Assembly (NCBI GenBank): GCA_016866975.1
Contig: VGKP01000001.1
Coordinates: forward strand, 1-64,000
Origin: Candidatus Pacearchaeota archaeon
GTDB lineage: Archaea > Nanobdellota > Nanobdellia > Pacearchaeales > GW2011-AR1
Direction of reading: 5' to 3'
DNA length: 64,000 bases
The notes beneath the pieces are model-generated. The model was given only the letters and a program-made list of their open reading frames with translations. It was not told the DNA's origin and ran no database searches. The position numbers and the translations under genes were made by a program. Shown here piece by piece: positions 22,010 to 46,795 of this stretch (position 1 is its first letter; the number at the start of each line of letters is the position of its first letter).

Positions 22010-22252
22010 TCATCCTTTCAGAACCGCCATTGGCTTCAAACGGGCAACGAGCTGACCGATGCCGAGATCGTCTGAGACACGGGCTACTTCATCAATGTCT
22101 TTGTATGCTTCGGGAGCTTCTTCTACAATGCCTTTTCTGCTTCCTGCTTTTATTGCTACGTTTCTTAAGGCAAGCTGTTTTTCAACATTTTCTGGAGTAA
22201 AGTTCTTTATTGCGTAAGAACGGGAGAGAACGCGGCCTGCGCCATGGGCTGT
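22010..22252 (-). pseudogene. orphan duplicate of the rtcB 3' end (last 80 codons)
   Basis: 243-bp direct repeat of 24262-24504, encoding TAHGAGRVLSRS...KPMAVLKG*; no upstream coding part. Confidence 0.95.
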
Positions 22253-24261: not shown

Positions 24262-25683
24262 TTATCCTTTCAGAACCGCCATAGGTTTCAAACGGGCAAC
24301 GAGCTGACCGATGCCGAGATCGTCTGAGACACGGGCTACTTCATCAATGTCTTTGTATGCTTCGGGAGCTTCTTCTACAATGCCTTTTCTGCTTCCTGCT
24401 TTAATTGCCACGTTTCTTAAGGCAAGCTGTTTTTCAACATTTTCTGGAGTAAAGTTCTTTATTGCGTAAGAGCGCGAGAGAACTCTGCCTGCTCCGTGGG
24501 CTGTAGAGCCGAAAGAAAGCTCTTCTGCTTTTTTAGTTCCGACTAAAACATAAGAGAATGTGCCCATGCTTCCGGGAATAAAGATGGGACAGCCGATGTT
24601 CCTGTAAATGGAAGGTATTTCTTTTCTCCCTGGGCCAAATGAACGCGTTGCTCCCTTTCTGTGGACGCAGACATCGCACTTCTTACCGTTTATTGTGTGT
24701 TCTTCGAATTTTGCTATATTGTGCGCGATGTCATAAATTAATGAAAGCTGAGATTTTGGAAAGTATTTTGAGAACACTTTTCTTAATTGGTAAGTCATAA
24801 GCTGGCGGTTTACAAAAGCGAAGTTTGCTGCCGCAGCCATTGCTGCTCTGTATTCTTTGCCTAATGGAGAGTTTATTGGAGCACAGATTAATTCTCTATC
24901 AGGGAGATCTTTGAATCCGTATTGCTTTTCCATTTTCATTATGTAGTCTGATGCTGTTTGATGCCCGAGTCCGCGGGATCCAGAGTGAATCATTATTACT
25001 ACCTGCCCTGTTTTAAGGCCGAAAGCTTTTGCTATTTCTTTGTTGAATATCTGCTCTACTTCCTGTATTTCTAAGAAATGGTTTCCTGAACCGAGAGAGC
25101 CGAGCTGGCTTCTTCCTCGTGCTTTTGCTCTGGGTGAGACTTTTGATGCGTCTGCGCCCTGAATACAGCCATTGTCTTCTATTCTTTGCATGTCTTCTTT
25201 TGTCGCATATCCTTTTTCAACTGCCCACTCTACTCCTCTTTCCAAGACTTGATTTAATTCTTTATCTTCTAATGTGAATTCACTTTCTTTTCCTACACCT
25301 GATGGAATGTCTTTTGATAATTGATTAAGAATTTCTTTTCTTTTTGCGAGGAATTCTTCTTTTTGGATGTTTGACGCTAGTATACGGACTCCGCAATTTA
25401 TGTCATATCCTACTCCGCCAGGGGAGATTATACCCTCTTCTAGATCAAAGGCAGCTACCCCTCCAATTGGGAAACCATAGCCTTGGTGCGCGTCTGGCAT
25501 TGCGATTGATTCTCCGACTATTCCCTTAAGGCAGGCGACATTTTTTACCTGCTCGATTGTTTTTCCATCTTTCTTGATGTTTTCCATCAGTTTTTCTGAT
25601 GCAAAGATCTTCCCAGGAACATGCATCTTGCCTTCTTTCTCTATTTGCCAGATATTTTCAGATATTTTCTTTGGATAAGCCAT
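24262..25683 (-). CDS. rtcB: RNA ligase RtcB (tRNA-splicing ligase)
   Basis: MPDAHQGYGFPIGG, GYDINCG, GSGNHFLE, HSGSRG, DIAHN, HRKGAT and HGAGR motifs. Confidence 0.98.
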   Translation of the reverse strand: MAYPKKISENIWQIEKEGKMHVPGKIFASEKLMENIKKDGKTIEQVKNVACLKGIVGESIAMPDAHQGYGFPIGGVAAFDLEEGIISPGGVGYDINCGVRILASNIQKEEFLAKRKEILNQLSKDIPSGVGKESEFTLEDKELNQVLERGVEWAVEKGYATKEDMQRIEDNGCIQGADASKVSPRAKARGRSQLGSLGSGNHFLEIQEVEQIFNKEIAKAFGLKTGQVVIMIHSGSRGLGHQTASDYIMKMEKQYGFKDLPDRELICAPINSPLGKEYRAAMAAAANFAFVNRQLMTYQLRKVFSKYFPKSQLSLIYDIAHNIAKFEEHTINGKKCDVCVHRKGATRSFGPGRKEIPSIYRNIGCPIFIPGSMGTFSYVLVGTKKAEELSFGSTAHGAGRVLSRSYAIKNFTPENVEKQLALRNVAIKAGSRKGIVEEAPEAYKDIDEVARVSDDLGIGQLVARLKPMAVLKG

Positions 25684-31121: not shown

Positions 31122-31286
31122 CCCCCTATAGCTCAACGGTAGAGCGTCCGGCTGTAGTCAATAAAGCTTAGAAAGCCTCGACTAGCGCAGACTTTCCTTC
31201 GGGAAAAAGAATGAAGCGCGATCAGAACGTGTCCGCTAGGACATGGCAGAACCCGGAATACCCAAGTTCGACTCTCGGTGGGGGGA
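31122..31286 (+). tRNA. tRNA-Tyr(GTA) with 94-nt BHB intron at 37/38 (intron 31158-31251)
   Basis: C1-G72 and A73 archaeal Tyr identity; anticodon GTA at 31154-56; central helix CTGT/GCAG with 3-nt bulges AG|T and AA|C; T-loop TTCGACT. Confidence 0.9.
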
Positions 31287-38720: not shown

Positions 38721-38738
38721 CTTTATAAATATTTTAAT

Positions 38739-38854
38739 GTCGGGAACCGATGAAAACCACACCTTGAAAGGTGTGGTGGTTCCCGAGCATCTCCAAAAAC
38801 GAGCGCCTGCAACAAACCTCGGCTTTTAAGCCGAGGTGGCGCATCGTTTTTGTG
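38739..38854 (+). mobile_element. non-autonomous two-armed palindromic element, copy 1 (divergent)
   Basis: GTC...TTTTTGTG flanked by AT on both sides; same architecture as 39229-39349 with compensatory stem changes. Confidence 0.8.
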
Positions 38855-38964
38855 ATATTTATAGTCGAAGAGGAAACCATAGAAAAACATCTCCAGAGTG
38901 AGAGTTATTAATGATGGTGGTGTGAATTTCCTTAGTTCAAAATAAAAGTCACCGAAAAATAATA

Positions 38965-39585
38965 TTGACGCAGATGAATAAAATTTTACTTAAGGATATA
39001 CTTTTTAATGAATCAAAAGTCAAGAAAATTGCGGATGAGATTCATAATGTATATTCATCATTTAAAAGAGAAGAATTTGTTCACGAAGTATTTACTAAAT
39101 TTCCAGAACTTGAATTAAAAGCTCGTATTTCTTGGATAGCTGTAAGTCTCAAGAAGTATCTGCCAGAAGATTATCCGCGCACTGTTGGCATTCTTATTAA
39201 GTCCCTTCCACAAACTAATAATCCTGATGTCAAGGAACTTGACTAAAACTCCAGCTTAAAAGCTGGAGTTGTTCTTTGAGCATCTCCAAAAACGAGCGCC
39301 TGCATCAAACTGCGGCTTAAAAGCCGCAGTGGCGCATCGTTTTTTTTTGATTTATCTGATGGCGACTTTGGCGATTTCATTTATACCCCATATGCAGAGT
39401 ATGTCGCAAAAAATGGATGTATAGAAGAAAATTTACAACTCTCACTTAATGCGCTACATGAAATAACGCAACGATTCTCTGCTGAAGATGCCATTCGATA
39501 TTTTATCAACGCATTTCCTAAGGAAACACTAAAAGAACTTATGAAATGTTTCAGAAAGGAGATAAAGCTCATATTGGGGCAATGA
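38965..39585 (+). pseudogene. DNA alkylation repair enzyme (AlkC/AlkD-like), interrupted and truncated
   Basis: PELELKARI..LKKYLPEDY, then after the inserted element DFGDFIYTPY...ITQRFSAEDAIRYFINAFP. Removing the element restores NNPD|LSDGDFG in frame. Confidence 0.8.
39229..39349 (+). mobile_element. non-autonomous two-armed palindromic element, copy 2 (inside AlkC/D-like gene)
   Basis: Hairpins CTCCAGCTT-AA-AAGCTGGAG and CTGCGGCTT-AA-AAGCCGCAG; AT on both flanks; near-identical to 46346-46463. Confidence 0.9.
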
Positions 39586-39683
39586 ATGAAATGATGGGAC
39601 TTATGAAGGATGAAAAGGCTATGAAAAAATGGATGGATGAGAAGAAGAAAGAGTTTGATGCACTACCTGATGATAATTCCTAG
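39546..39683 (+). pseudogene. C-terminal remnant of a small DUF1059-like protein
   Basis: Frame MFQKGDKAHIGAMNEMMGLMKDEKAMKKWMDEKKKEFDALPDDNS* starts abruptly inside the AlkC/D remnant; family recalled from memory. Confidence 0.55.
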
Positions 39684-39699
39684 AAGAAGATATAATAAA

Positions 39700-40329
39700 T
39701 CATATTTCTTTGATAAATGATCTAATATCACTTACAAAATCATCTGAGCCAATGACATAGGATTGTTTATTTTTAGGTAAGAATTGCCTGAGGGTAGTTT
39801 TATTAATCCTCCCATAAAGGTAATCAGGATGATTTTCTTTTGTCAATGCAATTATATAATTATTGCCTAAAAAGCTTTTGAGTTCATTTTCAAGAAATAA
39901 GTCATCTCTTCTTGATACTGAATGTAAGAGAGTATTGCCTGTCAGAGAATTATCTCTTTTAAGCTGTCGCAGTATGGCGATGAAAGGGGTTATTGCCTGA
40001 CCTGCAGCAATCATAAGGCCCGGTTTAGTATATCTTATCGAGCCAAATTGGTCTGAAAGTATGAGGGAGTCTCCAGGTTTTAATGAATGTAGTCTAGATG
40101 TGAAATTCCCAGGGCTGTTGTATTTCTTAATATGAAATTCTAAGTAAGAATCATCATTTGTCGATGTGAATGAAAATGGATGAGAGTCTTTTATGTTTTC
40201 AGGAAGAGAGATCATCACTGAATGACCTGGAATGAATTTAAAACCTGGGGGTTTATCCAGCCTGAATCTTTTTACATTATTGGAGACATCGACTATCTCT
40301 TCAATAATCACAATATGCTCTTTTGCCAT
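39700..40329 (-). CDS. FAD/NAD(P)-binding oxidoreductase (ferredoxin/flavodoxin reductase-like)
   Basis: FIPGHSV, HPFSFTS, EFHIKKY and IAAGQAITPF motifs. Confidence 0.88.
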   Translation of the reverse strand: MAKEHIVIIEEIVDVSNNVKRFRLDKPPGFKFIPGHSVMISLPENIKDSHPFSFTSTNDDSYLEFHIKKYNSPGNFTSRLHSLKPGDSLILSDQFGSIRYTKPGLMIAAGQAITPFIAILRQLKRDNSLTGNTLLHSVSRRDDLFLENELKSFLGNNYIIALTKENHPDYLYGRINKTTLRQFLPKNKQSYVIGSDDFVSDIRSFIKEI

Positions 40330-40415
40330 GATGGATAATAATTTGATACTGGTTAAAGATTTTTGGGTTTTCCACCATACAAAAACCTTTTAAATATAAA
40401 TTATTTATATTAATC

Positions 40416-40841
40416 ATGGCATTACCAAGTGTTGCGGTCAATTATGGGGCAGTTCTTGTCTCGGCTGTCGCAAGCATGATTATAGGGGTGATATGGTATT
40501 CCCCTTCAGTTTTTGGAAAAATCTGGATGAGGGGTGCGGGAATTTCTTCACAACAATTATCCAGAGCGAAAAAGAAAGGAATGGGAAAATTGTACTTGAT
40601 TGCCTTTCTAGGTTTAATAGTCATGGCTTGTGTCCTTGCAAGTTTCTTGGCTTTCGTTGCCGCCACAACGGTGTCTGACACCCTAGAGCTGTCATTGTGG
40701 ATATGGGTAGGTTTTGTATTACCACTTCTTCTTGGAAGCACATTATGGAAGGGAGAGTCATGGGGTTCTTATCTTGTGAATGTCGTATATCAGCTTGTCA
40801 TTATTGTAGTCATGTCTTTGATTCTTACTCTCTGGGTCTAA
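40416..40841 (+). CDS. DUF1761-family membrane protein
   Basis: VNYGAVLVSAVASMIIGVIWYSPSVFGKIWM N-terminus with four hydrophobic helices. Confidence 0.8.
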   Translation: MALPSVAVNYGAVLVSAVASMIIGVIWYSPSVFGKIWMRGAGISSQQLSRAKKKGMGKLYLIAFLGLIVMACVLASFLAFVAATTVSDTLELSLWIWVGFVLPLLLGSTLWKGESWGSYLVNVVYQLVIIVVMSLILTLWV

Positions 40842-40842
40842 A

Positions 40843-41151
40843 ATGGTTTCTTTTAACGAGCGTTGTTATGCTTTGCTGAGTAAAGTGCCGAGAGGAAATG
40901 TAGTCACCTATAAGGCTCTTGCAAACGCAATGAGGACAAAAGCATATAGAGCAGTTGGAAATGCAATGAATAAAAATCCGTATGCTCCAAAAGTGCCGTG
41001 CCATCGCGTTGTTGGAAGCTCGGGGGCGTTGGTTGGGTTTGCATCTGGATTGAATAAGAAGAAAAAGATTCTTGAAGATGAAGGCATCAAGATAGATAAT
41101 GGGAAGATAGATCTTGAGAGATATGGATTTGAGTTTAAACAAGCTTTTTAA
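40843..41151 (+). CDS. ogt: methylated-DNA-protein-cysteine methyltransferase (MGMT, C-terminal domain only)
   Basis: VPRGNVVTY, RAVGNAM and VPCHRVV active site. Confidence 0.92.
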   Translation: MVSFNERCYALLSKVPRGNVVTYKALANAMRTKAYRAVGNAMNKNPYAPKVPCHRVVGSSGALVGFASGLNKKKKILEDEGIKIDNGKIDLERYGFEFKQAF

Positions 41152-41173
41152 ATAACTTATTCTTTGATAGAAG

Positions 41174-41905
41174 ATGTACCTATTGGAATTCAATGGGATA
41201 AATAAGAGGTATGGGAATAAAGATGTCCTGACGGCACTTTCTCTAAAAATACGAGAAGGAGAGATATTTGGGCTGATCGGAAAGAGTGGAGAGGGTAAAA
41301 CCACATTGCTTAAGATACTCATTGGGATGGTAAAAGCAGACAAAGGAGAAGTATATTTTGAAGGATCCCTATTACCTGAAGATCCAATGTATCTTAGGAG
41401 AAAAACAGGGTTTTCTACACAGGACAATACATTATTTGAAGAGTTGAATCTCGTAGAGAATAGCATATACTTTGGAAGTCTATACGGCATGAAGAAAAAA
41501 GAAATAGAGGCAAACATGAAAGAGCTTCTTCAATTGGTAGAATTGAAGGGATATGAGAACCTATTGATTAAGCAGATATCCGGGGGCATGAAAAAAAGAG
41601 CTAATTTGTTGGTATCCTTGATACATAAACCAAAACTCTTGGTATTGGATGAGCCTACTGTCGGTCTAGACCCGATTATAAGAAATGGAATATGGGAGTA
41701 TATCCATAAGATAAACCAGGCAGGCACCACTATTCTTGTGACCTCACATATACTTGAAGAGATAGAGAAAAACTGCAGCAGAATAGGTATATTGAACAAG
41801 GGAGATATGATAGCTGTAGGTACCATTGAACAATATAAGGCCAGTTATCCAAAGGCAGCAACTTTGAATGAGATATTTGGAGAGGTGTTAAATAAATCAC
41901 CATGA
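41174..41905 (+). CDS. ABC transporter ATP-binding protein
   Basis: GKSGEGKTT, ISGGMKKR, LDEPTVGLD, TSH. Confidence 0.95.
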   Translation: MYLLEFNGINKRYGNKDVLTALSLKIREGEIFGLIGKSGEGKTTLLKILIGMVKADKGEVYFEGSLLPEDPMYLRRKTGFSTQDNTLFEELNLVENSIYFGSLYGMKKKEIEANMKELLQLVELKGYENLLIKQISGGMKKRANLLVSLIHKPKLLVLDEPTVGLDPIIRNGIWEYIHKINQAGTTILVTSHILEEIEKNCSRIGILNKGDMIAVGTIEQYKASYPKAATLNEIFGEVLNKSP

Positions 41906-43275
41906 TCTGGCCAATATTCAGCAAGAATCTAAAGACTGTATCTAGGAATTGGAACTATTTTCTTGTCTTAGTGATTTTTCCAATATTTCTCATACTTCTC
42001 TCAGGAGCAGTATTAAATTCCGCAAGCACTGATAACATAAAGGTAGGTCTCGTAAATGAAGGAGAGACCGTTTCTCTTGATTTTTCCAGCAAAGTTAAAC
42101 AACTATACTCTCATAGTTCATTAAGCGATTGCATTGCGAAGATGGCTGAAGGAAGCAGGGCGATCTGCATAAGAGTATATACAAAAGATGAAAAGCCACA
42201 GATAGATGCTTATATAGACAATACACAGAAAGTTGTCGAGTCCTATACGAAACAGTTCTTCCTGGAGACTATATTGGAGAGGCAGAATCTAGAAATAGGC
42301 CATTCGGAGAAAATCGAGGACAGACTATCTGTCTTCTCAACTTCTTTTCAAGATGCAAGAAAAGAACTTGATGTCAGCTTCCAAGAACTTGACAGACAAG
42401 AAAAGATATTGACGGCTTATAGTGCCGAAATATTCGGGACAATGGAATCTTTTCCAAGAGATTCTCCTACAAGGAAATTACTTGAAAGAATGCAGTCAAA
42501 TATTAGCAATTCAATACAGTCTGCACAAGAGGGCAAGAGAAAGATTGTTGTACTATTAAGCAAGACTGAACAAGGTAGTAAACAAATATACTCCTTAAAA
42601 GATTCCATAAGAGACAAAAGTGTAATATATCAAATTATGGATGGGATTGAAAACGTCCCAAAAAGTCCAGTAGCAAATACTTTCCCCCTCCTAGTAGCGA
42701 TAATAATAACATTTACTTCACTAATACTCTCAAACCTCTTCATATCGAGGCAAGTCAACCAGTCAAATTATTTCAGGTCGCTTATATCTCCCGTGAAAGG
42801 TTACTCCTTTTTCATCGCAGATTTCCTGATAAACTTATTCTTTGTGTTTATACAGTCACTGTTTATATTCATAGTAGGATTTTATATGTTTAATATACAA
42901 GTCATAAGCATCCTACCCCAATTAGCCTTGGTGATCTTCTTATCATCCTCCATATTTATCTTCTTAGGTATGAGCTTTGGCTATCTCTTCAAATCTGAAA
43001 ACCTTTCAATGCTCGTATCTATATTTGTAGTAATTTTGTTCCAGATATTCTCAGATATCCTTGCACCTCCTGCACTGGTAGGCCCAGCAGTTGGATTCTT
43101 CATGAGCATAAATCCATTCGTTATATTAGAGAATCTCTTAAGAGACCTTATAGTCATTGATAGACCTATGACATTACTGATTCCTTCCTTAAGCAAGTTG
43201 CTGATATTATTTTTATTGTCCATGGGCCTCGCAATTGCTGCTCAGAAGGCTAGGAAGAAAAAAGCTCTAGAGTAA
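41902..43275 (+). CDS. ABC-2 type permease
   Basis: N-terminal TM, coiled extracellular region, six C-terminal TMs; coupled to the ATPase gene. Confidence 0.85.
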   Translation: MIWPIFSKNLKTVSRNWNYFLVLVIFPIFLILLSGAVLNSASTDNIKVGLVNEGETVSLDFSSKVKQLYSHSSLSDCIAKMAEGSRAICIRVYTKDEKPQIDAYIDNTQKVVESYTKQFFLETILERQNLEIGHSEKIEDRLSVFSTSFQDARKELDVSFQELDRQEKILTAYSAEIFGTMESFPRDSPTRKLLERMQSNISNSIQSAQEGKRKIVVLLSKTEQGSKQIYSLKDSIRDKSVIYQIMDGIENVPKSPVANTFPLLVAIIITFTSLILSNLFISRQVNQSNYFRSLISPVKGYSFFIADFLINLFFVFIQSLFIFIVGFYMFNIQVISILPQLALVIFLSSSIFIFLGMSFGYLFKSENLSMLVSIFVVILFQIFSDILAPPALVGPAVGFFMSINPFVILENLLRDLIVIDRPMTLLIPSLSKLLILFLLSMGLAIAAQKARKKKALE

Positions 43276-43334
43276 TAATCCTGAAAAAGGTTATACTAGA
43301 GAACATCAAAGTTTTTATTGTGTAATTATAATTC

Positions 43335-43898
43335 TTGATAATGAGATTGAAAAAAGCAATTGTTGCTATTGGATTGTCTGGGCTACTATTAAATAATGGA
43401 TGTATTGTTTTTAAAAAAATAGACCAAAGTCTAGATACATTTGCTGAAAAACTTGAGAAGAGAAGGGAAAAACACCCTGAAAGCATACTGAATAGACAGG
43501 GCTATATCGTTTATACTGGAGATGCAGATATCCAACCTATTCAGACAACTATTGTAACAAATATTGAGAAAATTGTCAAATTTTCTTATCATGCTCCAGA
43601 GAATGTAAATGTTGAAGACACATATCTTGTCTTATCCAGGGAATTTAAAGATGTTTTAGGAGAACCATTTCATGAAGTGAAGCATAGGATCTATCCAGCA
43701 GGTTTTGATTTAGAGAAAAATACAGAAGGCACTGTGATGTCTTATACTTTCAAAAGCGGAGATATTGAACCGGGGAGATACCTTTATGAATGGATAATGG
43801 TGCTTCCTCAAGATTCAAATTCAGGTTTATTAAAGAGCATTTCTAGAGTCTTTTCATCTAAAAGTAGAATTTTAATGAAGGGATATTATCAGCATTAA
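43335..43898 (+). CDS. hypothetical lipoprotein-like protein
   Basis: Leader KKAIVAIGLSGLLLNNGC ending in a lipobox-like Cys. Confidence 0.6.
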   Translation: MIMRLKKAIVAIGLSGLLLNNGCIVFKKIDQSLDTFAEKLEKRREKHPESILNRQGYIVYTGDADIQPIQTTIVTNIEKIVKFSYHAPENVNVEDTYLVLSREFKDVLGEPFHEVKHRIYPAGFDLEKNTEGTVMSYTFKSGDIEPGRYLYEWIMVLPQDSNSGLLKSISRVFSSKSRILMKGYYQH

Positions 43899-44506
43899 TT
43901 TAGGTTCCGGTCTTCCCATGCCCTAATATAATCCTCGTCAAGATGTACATTGCTTCTATTTGGCTTTTGTGGGATATACTTCCGATAGTAGGCCCCAAAT
44001 AAAAATCCAAAGAATATTCCTCCAAGATGAGCGAGATTTGCCACATTACTTGGGATAAAAAGACCAATCAAGTCCCCTATAATCCATAGAGATCCGGCCA
44101 GAAAAAGAGGCATGGGAAGACCAAATGCAAAAACCATCATGCTCGGCCTTATCATTATCAGCGCACCTATCACTCCAAAAATCGCCCCTGATGCTCCTAA
44201 TGCAGAGTCATAAAATGGCAACGATATAAAATTTGCAGAAATACCTGTCAAAAGAAAGACAGAGACAAACCTTCTTGGCCCTATCCATGCCTCCAACATG
44301 CTCCCAAAAAGAGCAAGGGCAAAAGAATTGTATAATAGATGACTTAATCCTCCATGAAGGAAAATTGCAGTTATAAATCGCCAAGGCTGTACCAATGAAG
44401 ATTTGTTGAGCAATAAAGATTCTGTGAATCCTGGGACAAGTGTTTGCACTATAAACATAACTATGCAAAGAAAAGTTGTCATTATTGCTATTCCTTTGAA
44501 TGCCAT
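43895..44506 (-). CDS. rhomboid intramembrane serine protease
   Basis: PWRFITAIFLH, HLLYN, GASGAIFG and AHLGG motifs. Confidence 0.95.
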   Translation of the reverse strand: MAFKGIAIMTTFLCIVMFIVQTLVPGFTESLLLNKSSLVQPWRFITAIFLHGGLSHLLYNSFALALFGSMLEAWIGPRRFVSVFLLTGISANFISLPFYDSALGASGAIFGVIGALIMIRPSMMVFAFGLPMPLFLAGSLWIIGDLIGLFIPSNVANLAHLGGIFFGFLFGAYYRKYIPQKPNRSNVHLDEDYIRAWEDRNLN

Positions 44507-44597
44507 TAATAAGAGAATTATGTTACCCTTATTAACTCTCCTAAAATCCTATGGGTTAGCGGTAGATTAAAAAACTCTCCTTTTTGTATATCTTTAT

Positions 44598-44669
44598 GGC
44601 GGATGTAGTTTAATGGTAGAACGACGGTCTGTGGCGCCGTAGACGAGGGTTCGATTCCCTCCTTCCGCT
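44598..44669 (+). tRNA. tRNA-His(GTG)
   Basis: Cloverleaf GCGGATG...CTTCCGC, anticodon stem ACGGT/GCCGT with loop CTGTGGC, T arm GAGGG-TTCGATT-CCCTC; genomic G at position -1. Confidence 0.9.
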
Positions 44670-44720
44670 TATAAAAAGGATTTACATAAAGTTTATAATG
44701 TCTTTTAGTTTTTTGAGAAA

Positions 44721-46112
44721 ATGAAAGGTGTTGTTATTAAAAAGAAGGCATATGACAATCATTCTCCTTGGATACACCAGCTTGAGAAAGTAAGGAAGCC
44801 TCGAGATATATTAAAAAAAGACATAAAGACCGATATGGCCATTGTAGGTGCAGGAATAGCAGGCATTTGTACAGCATATTTTATTTTAAGAGACACAAAA
44901 AACAAAGTAGTTGTAGTAGAGGCCAATAAAGTTGCACATGGTGCTACAGGGCATAATGCTGGCCAAATAGTAAGTTATTTTGAGAAGCCATTTTCAAAAA
45001 TAGTGGAAGAATATGGGCTTGAATTGGCAGCAAGAGGGCAAGAAGAGATACTTAGCGGCTGGGAATTGCTTGAGCAAGTATATTCCGAGAGTGAGATTAA
45101 GACTTATTTCTCCCAGTTCATAGGATATGCCGGGTGCTCAACCTTAAAACAGCTCAATTCTCATCTTGAGAACAAGTATCTTAGAAACAAGGCAAATATC
45201 TCAATTGAAAAAGTCTTTGTATCTGAGAAGGCTCCGTTTTTAAAAGAAATACCTAAAAAATATGATGGCCTTTACGAGCTTGTTCCACATAAAAAAGTAC
45301 TTGAAATATTAGAGACCAAAAGCAGTTTATATCATGCTGCATTGGCTTCTAAAAAAGGCTGTCTTAATAGTGCATTGTTTTGTGAGGAGCTTATTAGTTA
45401 TCTTCTTTATAAATATAAAGATAGGATTTCCCTATATGAGTTTACACCTATTGATAAGGTAGAGCTTTATGGTGATCATGTAAAACTTTCTACTAGAAAG
45501 GGTAAAATAATCAATGGAAAGAAAGTTGTGTTATGCACAAATGGATTTCAGAAATTAAAGATAAATAATAAATCTGGAAAGAACATAGATACCAGTTTCC
45601 ATGATTTTATACTGGGAGTTGTTGGATACATGGCTGCATACATAAGCCCTCAGACTGGAACCAAATCAAATGCCATAAGTTACTTCCCTAAAAGTAACAA
45701 TGATGCAAGTGATGCATATTTCTATCTTACTAAAAGAGAGTTCTCTGACAAGATGGAATCTGGCAATCTTATTTCTGTAGGTGGCCCTGAAGTCACACTT
45801 GACAATACTATAGAGTATATAAGAGACAAGCCTTATTTTGAGAAACATGAGAAAAAAATAGACAAGTTTCTCAAAAAGAATTATATCCATGCTCCAAAAA
45901 AGATAAATTACAAATACCACTGGCATGGCCTTATGGGGTACACCAAAAGTGAACTTAGAGCGATAGGTCCTCACCCTTATAACAAAAACCTATTATATAA
46001 TCTTGGATGCAATGGAGTAGGCATCCTGCCTTCGATATATGGGGGATACAAGATAGCACGTTTTATAACTGGGATAAAGATGCCAAAGTCAATATTTGAT
46101 GTTGGAGTATAA
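44721..46112 (+). CDS. FAD-dependent oxidoreductase (DAO/PuuB-like)
   Basis: IVGAGIAG, HGATGHNAG, VVLCTNG and GCNGVG motifs. Confidence 0.88.
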   Translation: MKGVVIKKKAYDNHSPWIHQLEKVRKPRDILKKDIKTDMAIVGAGIAGICTAYFILRDTKNKVVVVEANKVAHGATGHNAGQIVSYFEKPFSKIVEEYGLELAARGQEEILSGWELLEQVYSESEIKTYFSQFIGYAGCSTLKQLNSHLENKYLRNKANISIEKVFVSEKAPFLKEIPKKYDGLYELVPHKKVLEILETKSSLYHAALASKKGCLNSALFCEELISYLLYKYKDRISLYEFTPIDKVELYGDHVKLSTRKGKIINGKKVVLCTNGFQKLKINNKSGKNIDTSFHDFILGVVGYMAAYISPQTGTKSNAISYFPKSNNDASDAYFYLTKREFSDKMESGNLISVGGPEVTLDNTIEYIRDKPYFEKHEKKIDKFLKKNYIHAPKKINYKYHWHGLMGYTKSELRAIGPHPYNKNLLYNLGCNGVGILPSIYGGYKIARFITGIKMPKSIFDVGV

Positions 46113-46580
46113 TCAACTCTTATCATCTACTTGGTAGTTTTGACCATCACTATCTAGAATTTCTTCAGGTGGAGAATGGCTTGGAGGTTCGGGATGCATA
46201 TATGGTTCGCAGATTGTCCAGGCAGCACTCATATCTTCTCTGGCTTGATAGAGGGCGGCTGCGCATTTCTCGAGTTGTCCTGCGAGCTGTGGTCTTCCTC
46301 TTTTTTTGTCTGCCGTGGCTTGCCGTTGGATGTCTTCTGCGAGATCAAAAAAACGATGCGCCACTGCGGCTTTTAAGCCGCAGTTTGATGCAGGCGCTCG
46401 TTTTTTGGATGCTCAAGGAACAACTCCAGCTTTTAAGCTGGAGTTTTAGTCAAGTTCCTTGACATAATAAATAACTTTTTCAGTTTGATCATAACGCATA
46501 TTACCAATGGCTTGCGCTAATTCTTGAAGAGTACCAGAATAACCTTGTACATGATCGGGATGTTTGTTGCAGTTGTCCAT
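46113..46580 (-). pseudogene. hypothetical protein (115 aa when restored) interrupted by palindromic element copy 3
   Basis: MDNCNKHPDHVQGYSGTLQELAQAIGNMRYDQTEKVIYY | LAEDIQRQATADKKRGRPQLA...WTICEPYM joins in frame once the 120-bp insertion is removed. Confidence 0.8.
46346..46463 (-). mobile_element. non-autonomous two-armed palindromic element, copy 3
   Basis: Reverse complement nearly identical to 39229-39349; AT on both flanks. Confidence 0.9.
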
Positions 46581-46658: not shown

Positions 46659-46795
46659 TGGCCTCGAGGGGATTTGAACCCCCGACACCTGGATTTCCTC
46701 CTAAGAGAAACAATGTTCCCTTATGGGTAAACTCTCCTTTCAGAGAGTTTCTTAGGTAAAAGTCCAGTACTCTAACCGGGCTGAGCTACGAGGCC
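46659..46795 (-). tRNA. tRNA-Lys(TTT) with 62-nt BHB intron at 37/38 (intron 46695-46756)
   Basis: GGCCTCG/CGAGGCC acceptor stem, CTGGA/TCCAG anticodon stem, anticodon TTT; BHB with CTTT/GAGG helix, 3-nt bulges and CTAAGA/TCTTAG intron stem. Confidence 0.92.

Follow-up and report, generated by a model that had tools for sequence, protein, structure and literature searches.

A gene-less, two-armed repeat family in a Pacearchaeota genome, probably a mobile element of the IS200/IS605 type

Short structured repeats are found at three places in the first 64,000 nucleotides of contig VGKP01000001.1 (assembly GCA_016866975.1) of Candidatus Pacearchaeota archaeon; this whole stretch is called the window hereafter. 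It is the start of contig C1 in a genome of 805.7 kb, made of 31 contigs and 89% complete. We propose, with a probability of about 0.85, that the repeats represent a non-autonomous transposable element of the IS200/IS605 type, similar to the palindrome-associated transposable elements (PATEs), in which a left end is fused to a right end without genes. This reading is favoured because of the target motif, the absence of target duplication and of inverted ends, an apparent match, with exceptions, between guide bases and cleavage sites, the strand bias of the copies, the presence of a resident transposase (TnpA) of the IS200 type, and hairpins related to those of insertion sequences (ISs) that carry such a gene. 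A sequence-only reading of the window had proposed this chemistry, with PATEs and REPs as likely relatives, and the same six observations support it.

Structure, ends and insertion preference of the repeats

Three copies were verified in the window, with the following parts (window coordinates, strand, description):

38735..38738, +, left flank of copy 1, TAAT (putative target and left cleavage tetranucleotide, a variant of TTAT)
38739..38856, +, copy 1, subfamily A, 118 nt, intergenic
38756..38777, +, left inner hairpin of copy 1 (putative TnpA-binding palindrome), with guide GAAA on its 5' side, 17 nt from the left end
38816..38837, +, right inner hairpin of copy 1, with guide ACAA on its 5' side, followed by a 19-nt linker ending in TGAT
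39225..39228, +, left flank of copy 2, TGAT
39229..39351, +, copy 2, subfamily B, 123 nt (with a T9 run), sense insertion within a gene remnant
39247..39270, +, left inner hairpin of copy 2, loop TAAA (inverted relative to the genome-majority TTTA)
39309..39330, +, right inner hairpin of copy 2, with guide TCAA on its 5' side
46344..46463, -, copy 3, subfamily B, 120 nt, within an orphan open frame
46363..46384, -, right inner hairpin of copy 3
46422..46445, -, left inner hairpin of copy 3
46464..46467, -, left flank of copy 3, TTAT (canonical target)

All three copies start with GTC directly behind TAAT, TGAT or TTAT, and all finish in TGAT. Each folds into two arms, every arm being built of an outer stem, a bulge of 8 nt on the 5' side and an inner hairpin. 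The outer stem is 9 bp long in the left arm and 13 to 14 bp in the right one, the inner hairpin has 9 to 10 bp and a 4-nt loop, and the arms are linked through a conserved joint, GAGCATCC, of the form GAGCATC(TC)C. A single G.T pair is present in the left outer stem of copy 2 (GTTCTTTGA). The folding z-scores were -7.9 to -10.6, whichever strand was folded, and none of 200 shuffled sequences folded equally well. The three two-armed copies, their flanks, their common ending, the individual stem pairs and the stem that closes the right arm are thus all as the sequence-only reading had described them, except that each 3' end had been placed 2 nt short, leaving out the last bases of the terminal TGAT.

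Covariation was counted on an alignment of 19 copies from 10 species, using the four-helix structure. The proportion of paired cells was 94.6%, compared to 84.2% in the shuffled alignment and 38 to 49% when the partners were slid. Double-sided compensatory changes were found at 20 of the 42 base pairs, in all four helices, and the compensation that had been noticed among the three window copies therefore holds well beyond them. The inner hairpins share the form ACTnCnGC-TTTTAA-GCnGnAGT at either end of the element, with compensatory changes at 11 of 19 inner pairs. Their stems are almost free to vary; constant parts are the bulges, the loops (YTTTWR), the last bases and the central joint. From species to species the length stays within 119 to 121 nt. 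The outer stems are under selection, beyond what an IS608-type minimal end requires, and this is compatible with a role at the DNA level.

Window loops read TTAAAA or TTGAAA, the genome-majority forms being TTTTAA or TTTCAA, with unchanged stems. Loops of opposite orientation occur in all three copies (38756-38777, 39247-39270 and 39309-39330, and the matching parts of 46344-46463). These orientations look like the product of hairpin-loop inversion within a perfect palindrome, at the DNA level.

The two ends of the element, GTCAAGGAAC... and ...CGTTTTTTTGAT, are not complementary (GTCAAGG... compared to ...TTTTGAT), that is, terminal inverted repeats are absent. Target duplication is absent as well: four copies with the left flanks TTCT, TTCT, TGAG and TTAC end in GAT and then run into unrelated sequence, and in the usual TTAT...TGAT case the shared bases amount to AT only. 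With the element removed, the abutting flanks read AATCCTGAT-TTATCT at the copy 2 site and TATTAT-CTCGCA at the copy 3 site (the hyphen marks the junction). The left flank was TTAT at 27 of 38 sites (71%), for a background frequency of 0.85%, and it conformed to TNAT at 89% of them, for a background of 2.6%. The same target preference was observed in 10 other species.

In wild-type IS608, the left linker is 19 nt long (PMC3597680). The corresponding distance here, from the cleavage point to the foot of the left hairpin, is 17 to 19 nt, varying with the subfamily and with the definition of the foot. The guide bases, that is, the four nucleotides 5' of each hairpin, are NAAA on the left, to be matched with TTAT, and NCAA on the right, to be matched with TGAT; position 2 pairs as T:A or G:C, and position 4 as T:A. 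Position 3 is a non-canonical A:A, as was reportedly described for TTAC/AAAG by Barabas et al. in 2008. For the right end of the related IS, the pair is GGAA and TCAT. Guides were called from the columns of the model-based alignment, and an automatic guide caller was discarded as too noisy. Among independent insertions, a C at position 2 of the left guide was accompanied by a G at position 2 of the flank in 4 of 7 cases, compared to 5 of 91 for the other guides (Fisher's test, p ~0.001, with few informative copies).

The orientation of the copies is strongly biased. In 54 of 61 copies (p = 4e-10), the element has its top strand on the strand that is locally G-rich, and the genes of the same contigs are balanced between strands. 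On contig C3, all 12 copies share one orientation, and on C2 all seven have the opposite one, with no such bias among the genes there. Insertion into the lagging-strand template predicts such an orientation (PMC3597680), and the bias fits replication-coupled insertion if GC skew marks the replication strands. Copy 3 is among the few copies whose orientation opposes the local skew.

Family size and candidate transposase

A BLAST search with the three copies returned about 60 places in the genome, with unrelated flanks. Subfamily A (GTCGGGAACC..., 118 nt) includes copy 1, and subfamily B (GTCAAGGAAC..., 120 nt) includes copies 2 and 3; further types are left/right chimeras, a third right-arm type, truncated copies, and longer copies with nested modules. 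Eleven type-B copies are mutually identical, as are 10 type-A copies, to which copy 1 is 98% identical, its left loop being inverted. These identical sets point to recent bursts. At least 12 contig ends fall within element copies, and the true copy number is therefore probably above 60 or so. Copies 2 and 3 form an inverted pair, 97% identical and 7 kb apart.

Within the genus, the family was present in 13 of 16 species genomes, with 76 to 88% identity. With the covariance-model scan that the sequence-only reading had suggested, 26 of the 141 genomes of the order proved to contain it, and so did 16 of its 81 genera. Such a patchy distribution counts in favour of mobility, as do the uninterrupted orthologues described below. 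The metagenome-assembled genomes (MAGs) that carry exact-word matches belong to Pacearchaeota, Woesearchaeota or 'Nanoarchaeota', and the earlier guess of a DPANN host was right; about half of the 17-mer matches in the genome contig collection were chance matches in bacteria. Viral contigs gave 34 exact 17-mer matches, none of which is an element under the covariance model, and these are thus put down to chance.

Some copies outside the window contain precise inserts of 50 to 52 nt (C13:7454-7674, C2:40336-40556, C3:37448-37668, C24:4520-4717 and C8:1-126). Each insert consists of two 7-bp mini-hairpins flanking a GCATC-like centre. One type lies behind CATCCAAA in the central joint, and another interrupts the TTTT loop of inner hairpins whose stems are quite unlike one another. 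Among themselves the inserts are 88 to 100% identical although the surrounding stems differ, and in other species modules of further types occupy these points. Single-hairpin derivatives were also observed (C5:44990-45110, C8:30850-30960 and C15:4940-5060), in which the left and right 19 nt enclose one inner hairpin, here with a nested module. Their form suggests that the arms collapsed through deletion between similar hairpins, as in the repeat-mediated core deletions of PATEs.

An intact gene for an IS200-type TnpA is present at C10:122-541. The protein scores 78 bits with model NF033573 (cut-off 55), its HUH motif reads HLH and it has a C-terminal Tyr; with the RAYT model NF047646 it scores 31.8 bits, under the cut-off of 80. 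The gene is flanked by IS-type ends and not by the repeat. The right end of the C10 IS consists of GGAA, the hairpin ACCGCACCC-TTTA-GGGTGTCGG and then AGGATGTCAT, and GGAA predicts TCAT under the guide rule. In three sister genera, IS copies with TnpAs 48 to 61% identical are inserted behind TTAT. Their left hairpin is CTCCAGCC-TTT-AGGCTGGAG and their right one ACTGCGGAC-TTTA-GTCCGCAG, and these stems nearly match the inner hairpins of the element, namely those of subfamily B. Judging by this resemblance, the IS family of the C10-type TnpA is the best candidate partner. A second IS200-type element is found, in partial form, at two contig ends (C6:1-230 and C12:26683-26912); it has a classic right end, CCCCACGG-TCTT-GCCGTGGGG followed by AGCTTCAC, and this right end also occurs in genomes G003, G006 and G013.

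By analogy with IS608, mobilisation may proceed as follows. A Y1 HUH transposase of the TnpA type, supplied in trans, would bind the two similar inner hairpins and excise the top strand as a single-stranded circle. The four bases 5' of the hairpins would choose the cleavage sites, the flank TTAT on the left (through NAAA) and the element's own TGAT on the right (through NCAA). The circle would then be joined 3' of a TTAT in single-stranded DNA at a replication fork, which would fix its orientation relative to the replication strand. The outer stems would stabilise the single strand of each end in its folded state, and not an RNA. We infer from the analogy which TnpA moves the element, that a circle is formed, and what the outer stems do.

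Several points weigh against an IS200/IS605-type element. No IS that bears TnpA together with full element ends was encountered in any genome searched, and a BLAST comparison of the element arms with all TnpA loci gave matches of 12 to 22 nt only; at C10, the only complete TnpA locus of the genome, the left end of the IS is lost at the contig end. The sequence-only reading had asked for a parent element with tnpA, tnpB or iscB; an IS200-type TnpA gene was found, and neither full element ends nor a TnpB gene in this genome. Genes for Y1 transposases were counted in 8 of 26 element-bearing genomes, compared to 22 of 115 element-free ones, a weak association that by our estimate is not significant; none was seen in copy-rich genomes such as G005, G008, G016, G087 and G161. 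The element-bearing genomes are incomplete MAGs, in which repeats often fail to be assembled. Some copies break the guide rule (GCAA with TAAT or TTAT, TCTA with ATAT, and TAAA with TGAT in copy 2). The right linker, at 19 nt, is longer than that of IS608 and of the related IS (10 nt each), and the linkers could reach the guides only if the outer stems were melted. That GC skew stands for the replication strand in this archaeon is an assumption. Finally, the empty-site comparison described below relies on metagenomic orthologues, not on a strictly isogenic empty site.

The scarcity of Y1 genes in most element-bearing genomes and the missing IS with identical ends would also be expected if the element were moved by another enzyme, either a different HUH protein (IS91/Helitron-like or RAYT-like) or an undescribed viral, plasmid or host-cell enzyme. 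Moreover, the PATEs of Haloquadratum move though nearly all IS200-type genes of that host are broken (PMC3119063). Searches of the genome detected no TnpB, IS110-type or IS91-type (Y2) gene, the Y2 search having been run without a positive control; the resident TnpA scores as IS200 and not as RAYT; and no copy was found in viral contigs. The target, the linker length, the guide match and the hairpins common to TnpA-bearing ISs all fit the IS608 model. We therefore regard mobilisation by such an enzyme as improbable.

The IS200/IS605-type reading could be exceeded by the family in two ways, a suggestion that we put forward tentatively and consider unlikely. Firstly, the outer stems and the invariant central GCATC have two possible pairing partners, the ATG made up of the left flank and the first base of the element and the GAT at its end; they may build a three-way fold, complete in itself, in which both cleavage sites are presented. 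If so, mobilisation by a distant or transient TnpA could be envisaged, and this would explain why most element-bearing genomes are without the gene. Secondly, the 50- to 52-nt two-hairpin modules may be separate micro-elements that target the hairpins of IS200-type ends, in which case they would be among the smallest mobile DNAs known.

Alternative readings and genes at the insertion sites

The strong fold, and a covariation so extensive that it includes outer stems not required by the IS608 model, are what would be expected of structured small RNA genes, or of repeats co-opted as such, for instance with the right arm and its T5-T9 run acting as a terminator or a small hairpin RNA. In favour of this, a T run, the termination signal of archaea, closes the right arm, the TTTTAA of the hairpin loops is similar to a TATA box, and the length remains constant, at 119 to 121 nt, among species. 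Stem mismatches were used to test for selection on an RNA or on the top strand, and no asymmetry was seen (22 G.T compared to 25 A.C), that is, there is no strand-specific tolerance of wobble pairs. Both strands fold equally well, and loops occur in both orientations (TTAAAA and TTTTAA) among the copies. No Rfam family matched the repeats, either at the gathering threshold or with E relaxed to 10; in the window only three tRNAs reach the gathering score, and for copies 1 and 2 and their surroundings the additional matches under the relaxed limit are at chance level. Copies lie within genes and pseudogenes, their orientation follows GC skew and not the genes, and close relatives carry anything from 0 to about 60 copies. 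An RNA function is thus highly improbable. The sequence-only reading had seen in the two-arm fold more structure than a minimal transposon end needs, and the selected outer stems bear this out; its further suggestion of a non-coding RNA is not supported, in view of the lack of an Rfam match, the absence of G.T/A.C asymmetry and an orientation that is not linked to genes. We conclude that the family is new, that it belongs to an element class already known, and that it is not a new RNA.

Two of the window copies interrupt open frames:

38974..39228, +, 5' part of the gene split by copy 2, 85 codons (orthologues have about 375-400 aa)
39352..39558, +, 3' part of the same gene, 69 codons, same frame
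46116..46580, -, open frame split by copy 3, 39 + 76 codons (115)

For the copy 2 gene, 43 metagenomic orthologues (35 to 71% identical) are uninterrupted and colinear over the junction, NNP[E/D]-LSDD, and when the 123 nt are removed, no residue is gained or lost relative to them. The gene stops at residue 156 of about 374, and the remainder (157-374) is nowhere in the genome. The copy 2 gene is therefore a decayed pseudogene with a second lesion, and the in-frame length of its insert has no functional meaning. The remnant (38974-39558, +) belongs to a metagenome-widespread family with the conserved motifs FPELELKARI, DFGDFIY and HYHVRRL..EGTRPKLPW. An assignment as a DNA-alkylation-repair gene had no supporting family match; the orthologues are described by alignment alone. 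A Pfam search with the four frame halves flanking copies 2 and 3 gave no significant family, and the copy 3 frame had no homologue among 60 related genomes.

Both in-gene copies of the window are in sense orientation and keep the frame (123 and 120 nt, multiples of three), as would be expected of introns that are spliced out of the mRNA, for instance through the archaeal splicing endonuclease. The genome does have tRNA genes with long introns, and a 5' GUCA and 3' UGAU of the element can form a 4-bp helix. We give this idea almost no credence. The element contains in-frame stops, and the minimum-free-energy fold includes no bulge-helix-bulge; the sole register that can be drawn, GUCA/UGAU, leaves extra bases and shifts the frame. 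Subfamily A is 118 nt long, the copy 2 gene, truncated at residue 156 of 374, is not kept alive, and other copies are antisense in open frames or intergenic. Furthermore, the 12 copies of contig C3 all point the same way despite strand-balanced genes. Two related candidates were also rejected: a translated in-frame palindromic insert of the Rickettsia type is excluded by the in-frame stops, and for programmed translational bypass the take-off and landing codons agree in copy 2, not in copy 3.

The long-intron tRNA genes of the window, at 46659-46795 (-, 137 nt) and 31122-31286 (+, 165 nt), were found with Rfam and missed by ARAGORN. They are consistent with an archaeal host, and 80 nt separate the first of them from the open frame that copy 3 interrupts. 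The window further contains a direct repeat of 241 nt (96% identical), at 22012-22252 and 24264-24504, 2.25 kb apart, which has no relation to the hairpin element.

If the copies are indeed IS200/IS605-type elements, about 1% of the DNA in a streamlined 0.8-Mb DPANN genome consists of one recently active, gene-less, single-strand transposon, which disrupts genes and accounts for 12 or more contig ends of the assembly. The end variants found across species would provide a natural series, in which the hairpin stems vary with compensation and the loops, linkers, guides and central joint are kept, useful to establish what an archaeal IS200-type TnpA reads, and the guide-to-target rule, combined with the strand bias, may offer a cheap way to infer the direction of replication in uncultured archaea. 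For annotation, the covariance model can flag copies, and split open frames need then not be miscalled as separate genes or as a new RNA.

Comparison with known systems

Compared to IS608 and ISDra2, the element shares insertion 3' of a fixed tetranucleotide, subterminal hairpins, a left linker of about 19 nt, cleavage sites that appear, with exceptions, to match the four bases 5' of the hairpins, and an orientation apparently tied to the replication strand (PMC3597680). It differs in being gene-less, in its outer stems, which sequester both linkers, and in a right linker of 19 nt instead of 10; its target is TTAT and its end TGAT, compared to TTAC and TCAA.

With REPs and REPINs and their RAYTs (Nunvar 2010, PMC2817692; Bertels and Rainey 2011, PMC3116915), the likeness lies in short, gene-less, high-copy hairpin repeats, a two-hairpin (doublet) layout, and a Y1 HUH enzyme related to the IS200 TnpA. 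REPs, however, are extragenic, have a GTAG/CGTC head and depend on a single-copy domesticated RAYT that is itself flanked by REPs, and the RAYT/REP papers deal with bacterial systems. Here, the TnpA is under the RAYT cut-off, copies land in genes, and the arms are direct, not inverted.

The closest counterparts are the PATEs of Haloquadratum walsbyi and other haloarchaea, described by Dyall-Smith et al. 2011 (PMC3119063). Like the present repeats, they are free of a transposase gene and present in many copies, without inverted terminal repeats or target duplication; the palindromes near their two ends are alike and similar to those of IS605-type transposons, and a targeting sequence of 4 to 5 nt stands at the 5' end. 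A further likeness listed is that the distance from end to palindrome is greater at the 5' end in the parent IS. PATEs also have 'terminal-only' versions down to 52 bp, and smaller mobile repeats often land in their palindromes (PMC3119063); among these are the SMR-A repeats of Haloquadratum (110 bp), which target PATE palindromes (PMC3119063) and which our 50- to 52-nt modules resemble at half the size. The puzzle of movement with few intact transposase genes is the same in both cases (PMC3119063). The differences are that the host is here a DPANN archaeon of the Pacearchaeota type and not a haloarchaeon, and that there is no sequence similarity. The putative partner is a tnpA-only IS of the IS200 type, with no TnpB found, whereas the PATEs of Haloquadratum derive mostly from IS1341/TnpB elements. 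Lastly, each hairpin is here enclosed in a covarying outer stem, giving two symmetric bulged arms with 19-nt linkers on either side.

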